From NCBI GenBank assembly GCA_947632005.1, contig CANRNU010000003.1:27773-91772 (forward strand): a stretch of DNA of 64,000 bases, read 5' to 3'. The notes under the pieces are model-generated. The model was given only the letters and a program-made list of their open reading frames with translations. It did not search any database and was not told where the DNA came from. The stretch comes from an uncultured Oscillospiraceae bacterium (lineage in GTDB: Bacteria; Bacillota; Clostridia; Oscillospirales; Oscillospiraceae). Below, piece after piece: positions 40,293 through 57,938 of this stretch. The first letter of the stretch is position 1, and every line of letters starts with the position of its first letter. The position numbers and the translations under genes are program-made.

Positions 40293-40454
40293 GACACGGC
40301 CCGACGCCGGTCTCCCCTTGAAAATTTCCTGTTTTTTCAAAATTTAATACTTCTGTAATGTCCTCTCACTTGCTTTTGTAACATCCGGCCGGTAGACTGA
40401 TACTTGCAAGAGTCAGTTTCATCTTTTTCATTTTGTCCTCAATCCATAACGGAG

Positions 40455-40496
40455 ATCGCCGGAACACGAAAAGTTCCGGCGATTTTCTTTCATTTT
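40455..40496 (+). terminator. Strong intrinsic terminator 14 nt upstream of the GTPase-NYN start codon (operon terminator or leader attenuator)
   Basis: ATCGCCGGAAC-ACGAAAA-GTTCCGGCGAT (11-bp stem) followed by TTTCTTTCATTTT. RBS CAGGAG and ATG 40510 follow immediately. Confidence 0.75.
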
Positions 40497-40509
40497 CAGG
40501 AGTTCACGC

Positions 40510-43068
40510 ATGAAGAATATCACCATCGGCGTCCTGGCCCATGTGGACGCCGGGAAGACCACGCTCTCGGAGGGAATGCTGTTCCTGACGGGAAAGATCA
40601 AAAAACTGGGGCGGGTGGACCACCGGGACACGTATCTGGATACCTACGACCTGGAGCGGGCCCGGGGCATCACCATCTTCTCCAAGCAGGCCATCCTGAC
40701 TGCGGGAGAGACCGAGATCACCCTGCTGGACACCCCCGGCCATGTGGACTTCTCCCCGGAGGCGGAGCGGGTGCTGCAGGTCCTGGACTACGCCGTCCTG
40801 GTCATCAGCGGCACGGACGGCGTCCAGGCCCACACCCAGACGCTCTGGCCGCTGCTGGAGCGGTATCACGTCCCCGCCTTCCTGTTCGTCACAAAAATGG
40901 ATGTATCCGGCACGGATGAACGCGCCCTCATGGAGGACATCCAGCGCCGCCTGGGGGAGAGATGTGTGGACTTCTCCGGGGACGCCGCCGCCCGGGACGA
41001 GTCGGTGGCCATGCTGGACGAAGCCGTACTGGACCGATATATGGAGACGGGGGCCGTACCCGACGGGGACATGGTCCGGCTCATCCGCCAGCGGAAGCTG
41101 TTCCCCTGCTATTTCGGTTCGGGGCTGAAACTGGACGGCGTGGAGGAATTTCTCGCCGGGCTGGAGCGATATACGCGCCCCCCTGTCTGCCCCGCCGCTC
41201 CCTTCGCCGCCCGGGTCTACAAGATCGGCCGGGACGGCCAGGGAAACCGCCTGACCTGGCTGAAGGTCACCGGCGGCGAGCTCTCCGTACGCATGCCGGT
41301 GCGGTATCTGCCCCTGAACGACCGGTCCCCTGTGGAGGAAAAGATCAGTCAGATACGGCTATACTCCGGCGTGAAATACGACACCGCGGACCGGCTCCCG
41401 GCGGGCCGGGTCTGCGCCGTCACAGGACTTTCCGGCACCTGGCCGGGTCAGGGCCTGGGGGCGGAGACAGACGGGGACGCGCCCTTTCTTGCTCCCGCCA
41501 TGGGATATCGCATCGTGCTGCCCAAGGGCTGTGACCCCCGGGTGATGCTGCCCAAGCTGAAGCAGCTGGAGGAGGAAGAGCCTCAGCTGCACATCCTGTG
41601 GCAGGAGCCGCTGGGAGAGATCCACGTCCAGCTCATGGGCGCGGTACAGATCGAGGTCCTGAAGAGCCTCATCCGGGAGCGGTTCAACGTGGACGTGGAC
41701 ATCGGCGCCGGGCGGGTCCTGTACCGGGAGACCATCGAGGACACAGTGGAGGGCGTGGGCCATTTCGAGCCCCTGCGCCATTATGCGGAGGTCCACCTGC
41801 TCCTGGAGCCCGGCGAGCCCGGCAGCGGCATCCAGCTGGACACGGTGTGTCCGGAGGACGTGCTGGACAGGAACTGGCAGCGGCTGATCCTGACCCACCT
41901 GGAGGAAAAACAGCATGTGGGCGTGCTCACCGGCTCCCCCCTCACCGATGTGAAGATCACGCTCCTGGCCGGGCGGGCCCATCTGAAGCACACCGAGGGC
42001 GGCGATTTCCGCCAGGCCACCTACCGGGCGGTCCGCCAGGGGCTCATGCAGGCCCGGAGCGTGCTCCTGGAGCCCTGCTATGCCTTCCGGCTGGAGGTCC
42101 CTGCGGCCCAGATCGGCCGGGCCATCACCGACATCCGTGTTATGGGCGGCAGCCATGAGAGCCCTGTCCCAGCCGGAGAGATGACGGTGCTGGAGGGCCT
42201 TGCCCCCGTATCCGCCATGGGAGATTACGCCGCCCAGGTGGCGGCCTATACCGGCGGCCGGGGCCGCTTTTCCTGCCATGTGGCGGGGTATCGCCCCTGC
42301 CACGACGCCGAGTCCGTCATCGCGGCCAGCGGCTATGACCCGGAGGCGGACCTGGAGAACACCCCGGACAGCGTCTTCTGCGCCCATGGCGGCGGCTTCA
42401 CGGTGAAGTGGAACAAGGTCCCCGAGTATATGCACCTGGAGAGCGGTCTCAAGCGTTCCGACCCCTCCCCTGTCCTGGACGCCGCGCCCCAGGTCCGGCG
42501 GCAGAATCTGGACATCGACGAGAAGGAGCTGGAGGCCATCATGCTCCGGGAATTCGGCCCCATCCGCCGCAGGCAATATGCCGCCCCGCAGCTCAACAGC
42601 GCCCTCGGCGTGCAGATGCAGGCCAGGAAGACAAAAGAGCACATCATCGTGGACGGCTACAACGTGATCTTTGCCTGGGACAGCTTGAAGCTCCTGGCCG
42701 GACAGGGGCTGGACCTGGCCCGGGAGAAGCTTTTGGATATGCTGGCCAACTATCAGGGATACACGAAAAATGACCTGGTGGTGGTCTTCGACGCCTACAA
42801 GGTCCCCGGCGGCTCCGGCAGCCGGGACAGCCGCGGCAATATCCATGTTGCCTATACCAAAGAGGGCGAGACGGCGGATATGTACATCGAGCGGCTGGTG
42901 AACGACATCGGCAAAAATGAGACCGTTCGGGTGGTCACCTCCGACAGGCTGGTCCAGCTGGGGGCCTTCCGGTCCGGGGTGCTGCGCACCTCCTCCGGGG
43001 AGTTCAAGGCCGAGGTGGACTGGGTCCTGGAGCAGATCGCCCAGGCGGTGAAGCGGACGCAGATGTGA
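40510..43068 (+). CDS. Translational GTPase (EF-G/Tet(M)-like) fused to a C-terminal Rae1/YacP-type NYN ribonuclease domain
   Basis: G1 AHVDAGKT, G2 RGITI, G3 DTPGH, G4 TKMD; EF-G domain IV/V-like blocks. Residues ~709-852 read IVDGYNVIFAW...VVVFDA...ETADMYIE...VVTSD and are colinear with B. subtilis Rae1/YacP. Confidence 0.85.
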   Translation: MKNITIGVLAHVDAGKTTLSEGMLFLTGKIKKLGRVDHRDTYLDTYDLERARGITIFSKQAILTAGETEITLLDTPGHVDFSPEAERVLQVLDYAVLVISGTDGVQAHTQTLWPLLERYHVPAFLFVTKMDVSGTDERALMEDIQRRLGERCVDFSGDAAARDESVAMLDEAVLDRYMETGAVPDGDMVRLIRQRKLFPCYFGSGLKLDGVEEFLAGLERYTRPPVCPAAPFAARVYKIGRDGQGNRLTWLKVTGGELSVRMPVRYLPLNDRSPVEEKISQIRLYSGVKYDTADRLPAGRVCAVTGLSGTWPGQGLGAETDGDAPFLAPAMGYRIVLPKGCDPRVMLPKLKQLEEEEPQLHILWQEPLGEIHVQLMGAVQIEVLKSLIRERFNVDVDIGAGRVLYRETIEDTVEGVGHFEPLRHYAEVHLLLEPGEPGSGIQLDTVCPEDVLDRNWQRLILTHLEEKQHVGVLTGSPLTDVKITLLAGRAHLKHTEGGDFRQATYRAVRQGLMQARSVLLEPCYAFRLEVPAAQIGRAITDIRVMGGSHESPVPAGEMTVLEGLAPVSAMGDYAAQVAAYTGGRGRFSCHVAGYRPCHDAESVIAASGYDPEADLENTPDSVFCAHGGGFTVKWNKVPEYMHLESGLKRSDPSPVLDAAPQVRRQNLDIDEKELEAIMLREFGPIRRRQYAAPQLNSALGVQMQARKTKEHIIVDGYNVIFAWDSLKLLAGQGLDLAREKLLDMLANYQGYTKNDLVVVFDAYKVPGGSGSRDSRGNIHVAYTKEGETADMYIERLVNDIGKNETVRVVTSDRLVQLGAFRSGVLRTSSGEFKAEVDWVLEQIAQAVKRTQM

Positions 43069-43079
43069 GCTGATCCCCA

Positions 43080-43860
43080 CGTGAGATATACCGCGCTGAT
43101 AAGAGAACGATAGATCGGGATTTGCCTATTTAATATCCTCTACCGATTTCAGTAATTCCGTCTACTACGATTTTATTATCTAAAAAATCAACATCTTTTA
43201 CCAACAGCCTCATTTCCTTTCATCCCTTTGCAATTTGCCAACAAAAACGTATCTAAAATCTTTTTTGCTTCATCGTATTGAACTGTGTTGCTACAACAAA
43301 AATATATTCTCTCTAAATTTTCTTCCAAACTTCGAATTTCACTTTCTAAATTTCTATCATTTTCAAAATACAATGTAGATAGGCTATTCATTAACTCTAC
43401 GATATCAATTTTATGGTTCAGAAAACCATGAATTAAAACTTCTATTCTCTTAATGTGAATCACCTTCTTTTAAAATGGTTTTGGTTTATTTAAGAAATCT
43501 GCCCACATAGTATTACCCATTAACCGATCCACCATATGATGTCTGTCCCAAGCTGCTACTATTTGCTTTTCTTAAATTTATCAAACAGTCCCATACTAAA
43601 GTCCCTTTCATAAATTAAGCATGATTGTTTAACCGCAGTCTGTCCGATGCTTATTATTATACACCCGAATTGTGAAGAAATCTACCGAATACAGCAGTTT
43701 TCCCAGTAATACTACCAGCTGTTTATCATGGGGGCTGTTGTGTTTAGTGTATTATTTTTCAAAAAAGTAAAACATAGAAAACTGTATATTATCGGAATTG
43801 CATTAAGCAGTTTAGTGTTCTATTTTATTTTTCCATGGTAGCGTATCTTCAAAAATTCCC
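43080..43860. other. AT-rich islet (about one third G+C on hand-counted lines, versus ~60-65% in the flanks)
   Basis: Abrupt composition change right after the stop at 43068. Contains one weak 91-codon ORF and several short ORF fragments. No integrase or direct repeats seen. Confidence 0.7.
43188..43463 (-). CDS. Hypothetical small helical protein (possible orphan immunity-type protein)
   Basis: 91 codons, GTG start, AT-rich codon usage unlike the host. A 33-codon ORF fragment ends 6 nt upstream (stop at 43470-43472). No family recognised with certainty. Confidence 0.35.
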   Translation of the reverse strand: MIHIKRIEVLIHGFLNHKIDIVELMNSLSTLYFENDRNLESEIRSLEENLERIYFCCSNTVQYDEAKKILDTFLLANCKGMKGNEAVGKRC

Positions 43861-43867
43861 ATTTGCC

Positions 43868-43998
43868 GCGCCGAAGGCGCACATTATTGACGGCTCCCTT
43901 GTGCAAAGGGAGCTGGCAGCGCGAAGCGCTGACTGAGGGATTGTAACAACCCCTCCGAGCGCCGCAAGCGGCGCCCACCTCCCCTTGCACAGGGGAGG
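43868..43998. repeat. Array of six consecutive short GC-rich hairpins (candidate REP/MITE-like element or structured leader)
   Basis: Hairpins at 43868-43880 (GCGCC-GAA-GGCGC), 43891-43915, 43917-43931 (CAGCGC-GAA-GCGCTG), 43935-43955, 43959-43974 (GCGCCG-CAAG-CGGCGC) and 43978-43998 (CCTCCCCT-TGCAC-AGGGGAGG). Confidence 0.6.
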
Positions 43999-44052: not shown

Positions 44053-44799
44053 ATGGATAAAGAGCTTGAAAAGCGTATAGAAGAACTGGCCGCCCGGTGC
44101 GAGAAAAACAGCCTCGTCACCGCCACCGGTTTTCTCACCATGGCAGAACAGCTGGAGGTCTCCGCCTGGGCCAGGCATCTGGACGGGGTGACGCTGCATC
44201 TGGACGGCGGGAACGCCGCCTGTGAACGCAAGTGCGCCTTCTTCCTGCCCTATTACCTGGATGAGGGGGATTTTGACCCGTCGGAATATATCTGTGCCCT
44301 CCGGGTGACTGCCTATTTCGGCCAGCCCTCCCACCGGGACTATATGGGTGCGGCCCTGGGGCTGGGTATCCGGCGGGAGTGGATCGGGGATTTCTGGGTA
44401 GACGCGGACACGGCCTATATCTTCTGCCTGCCCACGGTGGAGAGGCTTCTTCTCGACGAGCTCAAACAGGTCGGTCGCTGTACGGTCAGGAGCGCCTCCA
44501 TCCCCCTTCCCGACGTGCCCGCGCCGGTGCGGAAGGTGAAAAAGGTCACCTTCACCGTCAAGAGCCCGCGGCTGGATGCGGCGGCAGGCGGCATGTTCGG
44601 TATCTCCCGGACCGCCGCGGCGGAACTCATCCGGGCGGGCGCGGTGCACCTCAACTATGTCCAATGCCTGCGCACGGACGCGCCGGTGGCGGTGGGAGAC
44701 GTGATCTCCGTCCGGGGCAAGGGAAAGGGCGCGGTCACCTCCCTCGGCGGACGCTCCCGAAAGGACCGGACCTTCCTGGAGGCGGAGATCTATCTCTGA
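44053..44799 (+). CDS. ylmH: YlmH-family S4-domain RNA-binding protein
   Basis: Colinear with B. subtilis YlmH: FL.M.EQ..., ERK.AFFLPYY, HRDYMGAALGLGIRREWIGD, SPRLDA..., and a C-terminal S4 (SR..A.ELI..G.V.LN.......V..GD.ISVRG.GK). Start at ATG 44053. Confidence 0.85.
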   Translation: MDKELEKRIEELAARCEKNSLVTATGFLTMAEQLEVSAWARHLDGVTLHLDGGNAACERKCAFFLPYYLDEGDFDPSEYICALRVTAYFGQPSHRDYMGAALGLGIRREWIGDFWVDADTAYIFCLPTVERLLLDELKQVGRCTVRSASIPLPDVPAPVRKVKKVTFTVKSPRLDAAAGGMFGISRTAAAELIRAGAVHLNYVQCLRTDAPVAVGDVISVRGKGKGAVTSLGGRSRKDRTFLEAEIYL

Positions 44800-57726: not shown

Positions 57727-57739
57727 TTAAATAAATACA

Positions 57740-57938
57740 TGATGTCGAGTGGCGTTCGGCGCCAGCGGGAGAACCAGTATTGGGGTGTGTCCGATCATTC
57801 GGAGGGAGGCCTCCTCCTAACCCGTCAGCTAATCTCGTCAGGCAGAGGAGATATGTAATGCACGATTTCTGAATCGCGTGATGTCTATCCTATTGGAACA
57901 GGTATTTCCTTTGCCGCCCGTCATCGGGTGGCATTTTT
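57740..57938 (+). promoter_or_regulatory. c-di-AMP riboswitch (ydaO/yuaA class) with terminator expression platform
   Basis: Conserved blocks GGGAGAACCA (57767-57776), GGGGTG (57782-57787) and CTAACCCGTCAGCTAATCTCGTCAGGC (57817-57843) match the remembered ydaO consensus (GGGGA.CCA / GGGGTGAATC / CCGAACCCGTCAGCTAACCTCGTAAGCG). Terminator TGCCGCCCG-TCAT-CGGGTGGCA plus TTTTT at 57912-57938. Confidence 0.7.

Follow-up and report, generated by a model that had tools for sequence, protein, structure and literature searches.

The window analysed here, 64,000 nucleotides of contig CANRNU010000003.1 from an uncultured Oscillospiraceae bacterium (GenBank assembly GCA_947632005.1, positions 27,773 to 91,772 of the forward strand), carries at 40510..43068 (+) a single gene of 852 codons plus stop, with an ATG start and no internal stops in the list of open reading frames (ORFs) or on translation, whose product joins a translational GTPase to an endoribonuclease domain of the Rae1/YacP NYN type. 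An earlier note on this DNA, made by a model from the letters and their ORFs, had proposed both the uninterrupted ORF with its motifs in place and the GTPase-NYN architecture; the first stood up on translation of the ORF, and the second in Pfam searches, an AlphaFold2 (AF2) model and Foldseek comparison. The existence of such fusions is already known: the architecture was noted by Atkinson 2015, where it was placed in the Tet subfamily, and Matelska 2017 recorded TetM-NYN_YacP fusions in some Clostridia, with an unclear role. New here are the exclusion of the protein from the Tet ribosomal protection proteins, its parent subfamily, the anatomy of the tether that joins its two enzymes, a switch in loop III of domain IV, and an operon with ylmH.

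Domain anatomy of the fusion protein

All parts of the fusion gene lie on the plus strand. The G domain (residues 1-225, 40510..41184) is matched by Pfam GTP_EFTU at residues 3-222 (E 1e-44) and holds the motifs G1 AHVDAGKT (10-17), G2 RGITI (52-56), G3 DTPGH (74-78) and G4 TKMD (128-131). Domains II and III (residues 226-400, 41185..41709) are delimited by weak Pfam matches, consistent with the secondary structure of the AF2 model and with its Foldseek similarity to EF-G, whereas domain IV (residues 401-516, 41710..42057) and domain V (residues 517-596, 42058..42297) are matched above cut-off by EFG_IV (residues 401-515, E 4e-17) and EFG_C (residues 518-599, E 7.5e-15). Among the Pfam domains that the earlier note had expected, GTP_EFTU, EFG_IV, EFG_C and NYN_YacP were thus recovered, and EF-G_D2 and EFG_III gave only matches below their cut-offs. 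The AF2 model contains a five-domain GTPase body, and a Foldseek search with the whole model places EF-G structures at the top (E 5e-49). Taken together, the motifs and the domain order assign the protein to the EF-G/EF2-like branch of the translational GTPases.

Conservation was assessed in 76 complete fusions aligned with Tet(M) and one unfused homolog. The G1-G4 motifs are invariant or nearly so among the 76 fusions, and the catalytic His78 is present in 75 of them. Domain IV has the highest mean conservation in the protein, 0.84 as against 0.62-0.68 for the other GTPase domains, and because it is the most conserved region, contact with the decoding centre is likely to be important to the function of the protein. 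In this domain loop I carries the signature EGVGHFEPLRHYAEVH at residues 414-429, common to fused proteins and unfused paralogs, and loop III, defined by alignment to Tet(M) G504-R517, reads GRAHLKHTEGGDFR at residues 488-501 (41971..42012).

Between the GTPase body and the nuclease the earlier note had seen a linker of about 65 residues, a stretch better described as two elements, a conserved extension of 47 residues that belongs to the GTPase subfamily and then a flexible tether of about 68 residues. The extension (residues 597-643, 42298..42438) was delimited by alignment and is modelled by AF2 as a small alpha/beta module, with helices at 600-607 and 634-640 and strands at 621-625 and 628-632; confidence in this secondary structure is moderate, with mean predicted local distance difference test (pLDDT) scores of 56-78 in blocks of ten residues and values below 50 at residues 625-628. 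It is absent from Tet(M) and from EF-G and present in the unfused paralogs of the Lactobacillaceae. C597, C624, H626, W634 and H642 are invariant in the extension of the 76 fusions, and C597, C624, H626 and H642 are likewise invariant in about 118 unfused members of the subfamily, a pattern that may mark a metal site of the zinc type formed by these two cysteines and two histidines.

The tether (residues 644-711, 42439..42642) was recognised by its pLDDT and conservation profiles. Residues 649-670 and 683-707 have pLDDT below 50 and are predicted to be disordered, and for this reason the NYN nuclease is, in the model, tethered to the GTPase and not docked on it. The tether contains a conserved helix, DEKELEAIMLREFGPIR, at residues 668-686 (nt 42511-42567), predicted by AF2 as helical at 671-682 and lying between two variable stretches; across these three segments conservation is 0.50, 0.80 and 0.37, and their lengths vary among the 76 fusions. 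The idea that this helix might be the displaced C-terminal tail of Rae1 was rejected, as no similarity was found. A random coil of the length of the tether would, on a polymer estimate, typically span ~60 Å from end to end and be extensible well past 100 Å.

The C-terminal domain (residues 712-852, 42643..43065) is a Rae1/YacP-type NYN endoribonuclease domain by its match to Pfam NYN_YacP (PF05991), which covers residues 712-851 with an E value of 1e-42 and 146.5 bits against a gathering score of 24.6. It matches the B. subtilis YacP/Rae1 structure, PDB 5MQ8, at E 2e-23, is 41% identical to B. subtilis Rae1, and is modelled with pLDDT of ~86-89 over most of its length. The acidic residues D715, D761, E787, D790 and D812 are conserved in 76/76 fusions, and D715 and D790 align to Rae1 D7 and D81, the pair altered in the published catalytic mutant D7N D81N (PMC10351889), so that the intact acidic active site claimed in the earlier note is borne out. 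With the catalytic residues of both the GTPase and the nuclease in place, both enzymes look active. The final ~26 residues of stand-alone Rae1 are missing from the fusion: of the 166 profile positions of PF05991, 1-142 are matched, and the B. subtilis protein is aligned up to about residue 141 of 170.

Parallels with B. subtilis Rae1 thus extend to the NYN_YacP fold and to all of the conserved acidic residues, including the D7/D81 pair, and by analogy dependence on the ribosome would be expected of the fusion as well. Rae1 is, in contrast, a free, single-domain protein of 170 aa that binds the ribosome transiently, whereas here the domain is covalently tethered to a GTPase of 643 residues, and rae1 lies in a cysS-mrnC-rlmB-rae1 operon, outside of which the fusion gene is found. 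When cluster representatives were searched for free-standing proteins closely related to the NYN domain of the fusion, the short ones proved to be truncated gene calls starting inside the linker, and one was a chimera, and all were set aside; the partial genome records of Monoglobus and A. rectalis contain the fused copy of the domain only.

Distribution and parent GTPase subfamily

It is clear that the fusion gene is real and that it is widespread in gut Clostridia. The identical protein is found on three contigs, and more than 120 clusters at 62-85% identity share its precomputed Pfam architecture. The gene was examined at 86 loci, made up of 80 species-representative genomes and six other contigs, and in 86/86 the GTPase, linker and NYN regions lie in one frame with zero stops; an assembly artefact or frameshift at the 42400-42640 junction, which the earlier note had wanted confirmed, is therefore rejected and the junction is genuine. 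When one genome per species was scanned, at least 590 species genomes were found to encode a relative of the linker and NYN region, and a profile-free search of 1.84 billion cluster representatives returned 325 clusters (50% identity) at E<=1e-30, the best 150 of which are mostly proteins of 830-1156 aa with the match at the C-terminus, or fragments of such proteins. Cultured carriers include Monoglobus pectinilyticus (WP_320690501.1, 862 aa) and Agathobacter rectalis (WP_306784676.1, 933 aa), in both of which Pfam confirms the fusion. The gene is chromosomal, vertically inherited and housekeeping-like, the last because it is present in single copy, in varied chromosomal contexts and in at least 590 species. 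Fusions on contigs titled 'uncultured Coriobacteriaceae' and 'Bacteroides faecis' (L042 and L043) cluster tightly on the neighbour-joining tree with those of Ruminococcus/Clostridia metagenome-assembled genomes (L038, L040 and L044), and their placement is probably due to mis-binning in those assemblies.

The best curated family for the GTPase is NF012153 (tet_protect), which matches from end to end with 375.5 bits against a cut-off of 775. The more specific Tet(M/W/O/S) model (219 bits against 1100) and Tet(M) model (187 against 1420) fall below their cut-offs, as do the EF-G equivalogs TIGR00484 (258.7 bits against 659.4) and NF009381 (293 against 583), and the homologs of Monoglobus, A. rectalis and L. 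salivarius are likewise under the Tet cut-offs. Identity to the Tn916-type Tet(M) is 28%. In loop III, Tet(M) G504-R517 aligns without gaps to G488-R501 of the fusion, with the length of the loop preserved and a DFR motif common to both, while at the tip Y506 is replaced by A490, Y507 by H491, S508 by L492, P509 by K493 and V510 by H494. H491, K493 and H494 are invariant in the fusions, the first two in 76/76. Pro509 of Tet(M) sits in the tetracycline site against C1054 (PMC8161019), and Tet(M) depends for its function on loop III and the C-terminal helix (PMC4750697); the C-terminus of Tet(M) has no counterpart in the fusion, where the unrelated 47-residue extension stands in its place.

Compared with Tet(M)/Tet(O), then, the fusion GTPase is alike in being a five-domain EF-G paralog with a reduced G' region, a loop III of equal length and the DFR motif, and in having tet_protect as its best-scoring model. 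It differs in its low identity, in a score of half the curated cut-off, in the exchange of Pro509 for Lys and of Tyr506/507 for Ala/His, in its different C-terminal extension and its nuclease, and in being chromosomal and vertically inherited rather than transposon-borne. By these scores and substitutions it is neither a bona fide ribosomal protection protein nor a bona fide EF-G, and is assigned to a distinct EF-G/Tet-like subfamily. Public annotation nevertheless calls some orthologs (A. rectalis WP_306784676.1; P0114 and P0074) 'TetM/TetW/TetO/TetS family tetracycline resistance ribosomal protection protein', although these score ~260 bits against a cut-off of 1100, and the name is likely a false call of antibiotic resistance that could inflate resistome surveys.

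Members of this subfamily occur without the nuclease. The fusion GTPase is ~50% identical to a 639-aa protein, WP_087449157.1, on megaplasmids of Ligilactobacillus salivarius, which has homologs of 640-660 aa, 59-63% identical to it, on the 2.3-3 Mb chromosomes of many Lactobacillaceae; these unfused proteins are annotated variously as 'translation factor GTPase family protein', 'elongation factor G' or 'GTP-binding protein'. What the 76 fused and 118 unfused proteins have in common is the signature of loop I and the entire extension, with C597, C624, H626 and H642, and the unfused ones stop ~8 residues past the extension. The unfused GTPase (for example that of L. salivarius, Companilactobacillus or Levilactobacillus) thus resembles the fusion in subfamily, loop I signature and extension, and differs from it in having no tether and no NYN domain and in the tip of loop III, where positions 491/493/496 are H/K/E in the fusions (76, 76 and 69 of 76) and S/V/V in 118/118 unfused proteins. 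This switch co-varies with the nuclease; because the fused and unfused sets are phylogenetically separate it counts as one contrast only, and does not prove coupling. The alignments place the clostridial fusion as the nuclease-carrying branch of a distinct EF-G/Tet-like subfamily that is found nuclease-free in the Lactobacillaceae, and so define an uncharacterised GTPase subfamily, with and without nuclease, that is marked by a distinctive C-terminal extension. The L. salivarius megaplasmid copy is flanked by IS1380 and other transposases, unlike the chromosomal homologs of the Lactobacillaceae, and may be mobile.

Linkage to ylmH and a proposed role in ribosome rescue

The gene that follows the fusion gene in the window, at 44053..44799 (+), encodes a YlmH homolog of 248 aa. 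It matches YlmH_RBD (PF17774) with 37 bits against a cut-off of 23, has a weak S4 match, and aligns over residues 22-240 to chain V of PDB 8S1P, B. subtilis YlmH on the 50S subunit, at E 8e-23; the YlmH_1st domain is also present in relatives. By these matches the downstream neighbour is identified as a genuine YlmH. The remaining neighbours in the window are a UDG, an LPG-synthase-C protein and a GNAT acetyltransferase upstream and, beyond the YlmH-family gene, a large surface protein and SpoVA genes downstream. In two relatives at 63-65% identity ylmH is again the next gene, its start overlapping the fusion stop by 14 and 23 nt, and the other neighbours are wholly different. Among the 86 loci ylmH lies directly downstream on the same strand in 44 (38 of the 80 species genomes), and in 31 of those 38 species genomes its start overlaps or nearly abuts the fusion stop (tblastn offsets of -23 to +18 nt). 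On a neighbour-joining tree the ylmH-linked loci make up exactly one clade, every full-length member of which has ylmH. The fusion gene and ylmH therefore form a tight two-gene unit in one large clade that includes the window, and it is in this clade that ylmH is the conserved downstream partner; the unit is newly found here, and the YlmH paper mentions no GTPase or NYN neighbour of ylmH (PMC11317155). YlmH is a ribosome quality-control factor that binds 50S-peptidyl-tRNA complexes and supports alanine tailing (PMC11317155). Apart from ylmH, no real neighbour family recurs at more than 10 loci. The one other family to recur is a ClpA/ClpC-like AAA+ ATPase (~769 aa, with N-terminal CxxC..CxxC), which lies immediately upstream at 10 of the 80 species-genome loci, for example at L065:1846-4155. 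It is on the same strand in nine of the ten, most of which belong to the clade that lacks ylmH, and it makes a second neighbour of the protein quality-control kind.

Views of Rae1 itself have changed in ways that bear on the fusion. Rae1 is a ribosome-dependent mRNA endonuclease that acts at stalled or collided ribosomes and feeds transfer-messenger RNA (tmRNA) (PMC12407103, PMC13622287). An older, docking-based model that put it in the A site has since been withdrawn by the laboratory behind it, and the current view places the Rae1 cut ~12 nt upstream, at the rear of ribosomes that have stalled or collided (PMC12407103); the earlier note, which took A-site cutting by Rae1 as established, is outdated on this point. 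Rae1 makes tmRNA substrates on collided ribosomes according to a preprint, which also puts down the absence of a ribosome-bound structure to the transience of the association (PMC13622287). An older prediction gave YacP a role in rRNA/tRNA processing on the strength of the cysS-mrnC-rlmB-rae1 operon (PMC5499597), an operon that was also seen directly in the present analysis.

The reading favoured here is that the fusion is, on balance, probably a GTPase-anchored mRNA nuclease for the rescue of stalled ribosomes. The mechanism that we infer comprises ribosome binding, mRNA as the substrate, a position for the cut and a link to rescue. The GTP-bound five-domain body would dock in the factor-binding site and extend domain IV to the decoding centre of a ribosome unable to proceed, and docking would keep the tethered nuclease near the mRNA of that ribosome. 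On the 30S subunit the factor site is on the side where the mRNA enters, and in a collided pair the entry channel of the trailing ribosome faces the exit of the leader. Because of this geometry, a factor on a trailing or a lone stalled ribosome would be well placed to truncate the mRNA. The cut would likely fall on mRNA exposed at the edge of the ribosome, within reach of the NYN domain thanks to the tether, that is at the entry channel of the bound ribosome, and in a collided pair just behind the stalled leader, where free Rae1 cuts. GTP hydrolysis would then free the factor, and the truncated mRNA would let the ribosomes be recycled by tmRNA or by ribosome-associated quality control, the latter with YlmH. 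Hbs1, of Hbs1-Dom34, is likewise a translational GTPase that recognises the stalled ribosome. SmrB in E. coli and Cue2/NONU-1 in eukaryotes are nucleases recruited to stalled or collided ribosomes, where they cut mRNA for rescue (PMC13622287), as is proposed for the fusion; in these systems, however, the nuclease has an SMR rather than an NYN fold, and GTPase and nuclease are separate proteins where here they are one polypeptide.

Other explanations draw on parts of the same evidence. The earlier note favoured a GTPase that carries its nuclease into the A site, so that the NYN domain would cut the A-site codon in the manner of RelE; this could appeal to the withdrawn docking model (PMC12407103) and to the fact that EF-G/Tet-like factors reach the A site through domain IV, here the most conserved region. 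In complexes of EF-G and of Tet(M), however, it is domain IV itself that fills the A site (PMC8161019), leaving no room for a 140-residue NYN domain that is carried on a disordered linker from the far end of domain V. Since the A site, once taken up by domain IV, cannot receive the nuclease of the same factor too, and since the model for Rae1 has been revised, delivery to the A site is distinctly improbable. A ribosome biogenesis or turnover factor, in which the GTPase would dock on ribosomes or their precursors and the NYN domain would cut rRNA or tRNA, either to mature these RNAs or to destroy ribosomes that are damaged or hibernating, is plausible but unlikely, though of these alternatives it deserves the most weight. 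The older processing prediction for YacP (PMC5499597) would fit it, and the host is a spore former with SpoVA genes nearby. A GTPase body of this kind also binds beside the sarcin-ricin loop and the decoding centre. Yet all experimentally known Rae1 substrates are mRNAs and their cleavage is translation-dependent, the conserved partner YlmH acts on the obstructed 50S subunit and is not a biogenesis enzyme, and no rRNA-processing neighbours were seen at the loci examined.

The suggestion of Atkinson 2015, a tetracycline-type ribosomal protection protein with an added nuclease and hence a novel resistance mechanism, agrees with the Tet-subfamily placement made there, with the end-to-end match to tet_protect as the best curated model, with a loop III that equals that of Tet(M) in length and shares its DFR, with the TetM/W/O/S name that NCBI gives to the A. 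rectalis ortholog, and with the insertion sequences flanking the unfused megaplasmid paralog of L. salivarius. It is nonetheless very improbable, for the tet_protect score is 375 bits where 775 are needed, the specific Tet models fail by more and no more than 28% of the sequence is identical to Tet(M); Lys invariably replaces Pro509, which sits in the tetracycline site (PMC8161019), Y506/Y507 are A/H, and the region of the Tet(M) C-terminal helix is replaced (PMC4750697), in a chromosomal gene that lies outside any mobile-element context in hundreds of species. Least probable of all is a toxin or abortive-infection effector that would shut off translation by cleaving ribosome-bound mRNA or rRNA. 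RelE and other RNases that depend on the ribosome are classic toxins, and a BrnT/CopG toxin-antitoxin pair lies just upstream of the gene in A. rectalis, but the fusion has no PADLOC match, no copy on a viral contig and no defence-island context, its neighbours being of a housekeeping type, which also tells against the abortive-infection role entertained in the earlier note, and no partner resembling an antitoxin or an immunity protein is conserved beside it. Its occurrence as a single copy, in varied chromosomal contexts and in at least 590 species, fits a housekeeping gene instead.

Several points weigh against the rescue reading. The ylmH linkage represents one ancestral event, and the other half of the family, to which Monoglobus and Agathobacter rectalis belong, lacks it; as a single event it could be inherited synteny, and in the window itself the pair is interrupted by an AT-rich island. 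The unfused Lactobacillaceae paralogs offer no informative neighbourhood, the three loci inspected having three different contexts. With a predicted template modelling score (pTM) of 0.49, the AF2 model does not place the nuclease reliably, sequence does not tell which ribosomal state is recognised or where the cut falls, and the substrate could be rRNA or tRNA rather than mRNA. Finally, no functional study of the family was found in the searchable literature; to that extent the earlier note's statement that no protein of this architecture had been characterised holds, the architecture itself having been on record since 2015.

A more specific form of the rescue reading, in which the fusion would be a self-contained sensor and effector of stalling or collision, with engagement of the GTPase licensing the tethered nuclease, and in which coupling to YlmH would coordinate mRNA cleavage with nascent-chain quality control on the 50S subunit in the one clade, is tentative, and on present evidence we would sooner doubt than accept it. 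If this form is true, the fusion would be the first case, across all domains of life, of a translational GTPase that carries its own nuclease, and by Rosetta-stone logic free Rae1 would be expected to cooperate with a factor-site GTPase in other Firmicutes. As a natural form of Rae1 fixed permanently to an EF-G-like anchor, and one that non-hydrolysable GTP could trap, the fusion would give direct structural and biochemical access to the way in which Rae1 recognises ribosomes that have stalled or collided. Hundreds of Clostridia of the gut and rumen carry the fusion, which is probably a major, unstudied route of ribosome rescue in the microbiome, and the new findings, along with the 2025-2026 revision of Rae1, make the rescue hypothesis directly testable.

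Leader and local DNA

The fusion gene is preceded by a Shine-Dalgarno sequence, AGGAG, at 40498..40502 (+), read from the sequence 7 nt 5' of the ATG. The 5' leader also contains a strong terminator-like hairpin at 40451..40487 (+), a 15-bp stem followed by a T-run, which ends 22 nt before the start codon and may be either an attenuator or the terminator of the upstream gene; transcription of the fusion gene must pass it, which suggests attenuation. A family-wide leader attenuator was rejected, as a terminator-like hairpin abuts the start codon in only ~16/72 relatives, and a search of the leader in the window yielded neither a convincing leader ORF nor a convincing antiterminator. In several relatives (L018, L024, L027, L047, L058, L049 and L079) a promoter-like pair, TTGAT..N17..TAGAAT/TAAAAT, ends 6-8 nt before the ATG, a spacing that suggests leaderless mRNAs for the fusion gene in those genomes.

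Downstream, the fusion gene is split from ylmH by an AT-rich island of ~800 bp (43100..43900; GC 0.25-0.37 against ~0.67 in the flanks) that is found in this genome only. It contains, at 43188-43463 on the minus strand, a 91-aa ORF with no Pfam match and no PADLOC match. The idea that the 985 nt separating the fusion gene from ylmH hold an RNA gene was rejected, as this gap gives no Rfam or tRNA match and is accounted for by the AT-rich insertion. In the closest relatives the spacers between fusion gene and ylmH are 66-882 nt long and unrelated to the island of the window, which suggests a hot spot for insertion at this position in the window and its closest relatives. Elsewhere in the window, at 57733-57859 (+), lies a cyclic di-AMP (c-di-AMP) riboswitch (ydaO/yuaA leader) that scores 60.7 bits against a gathering score of 38.

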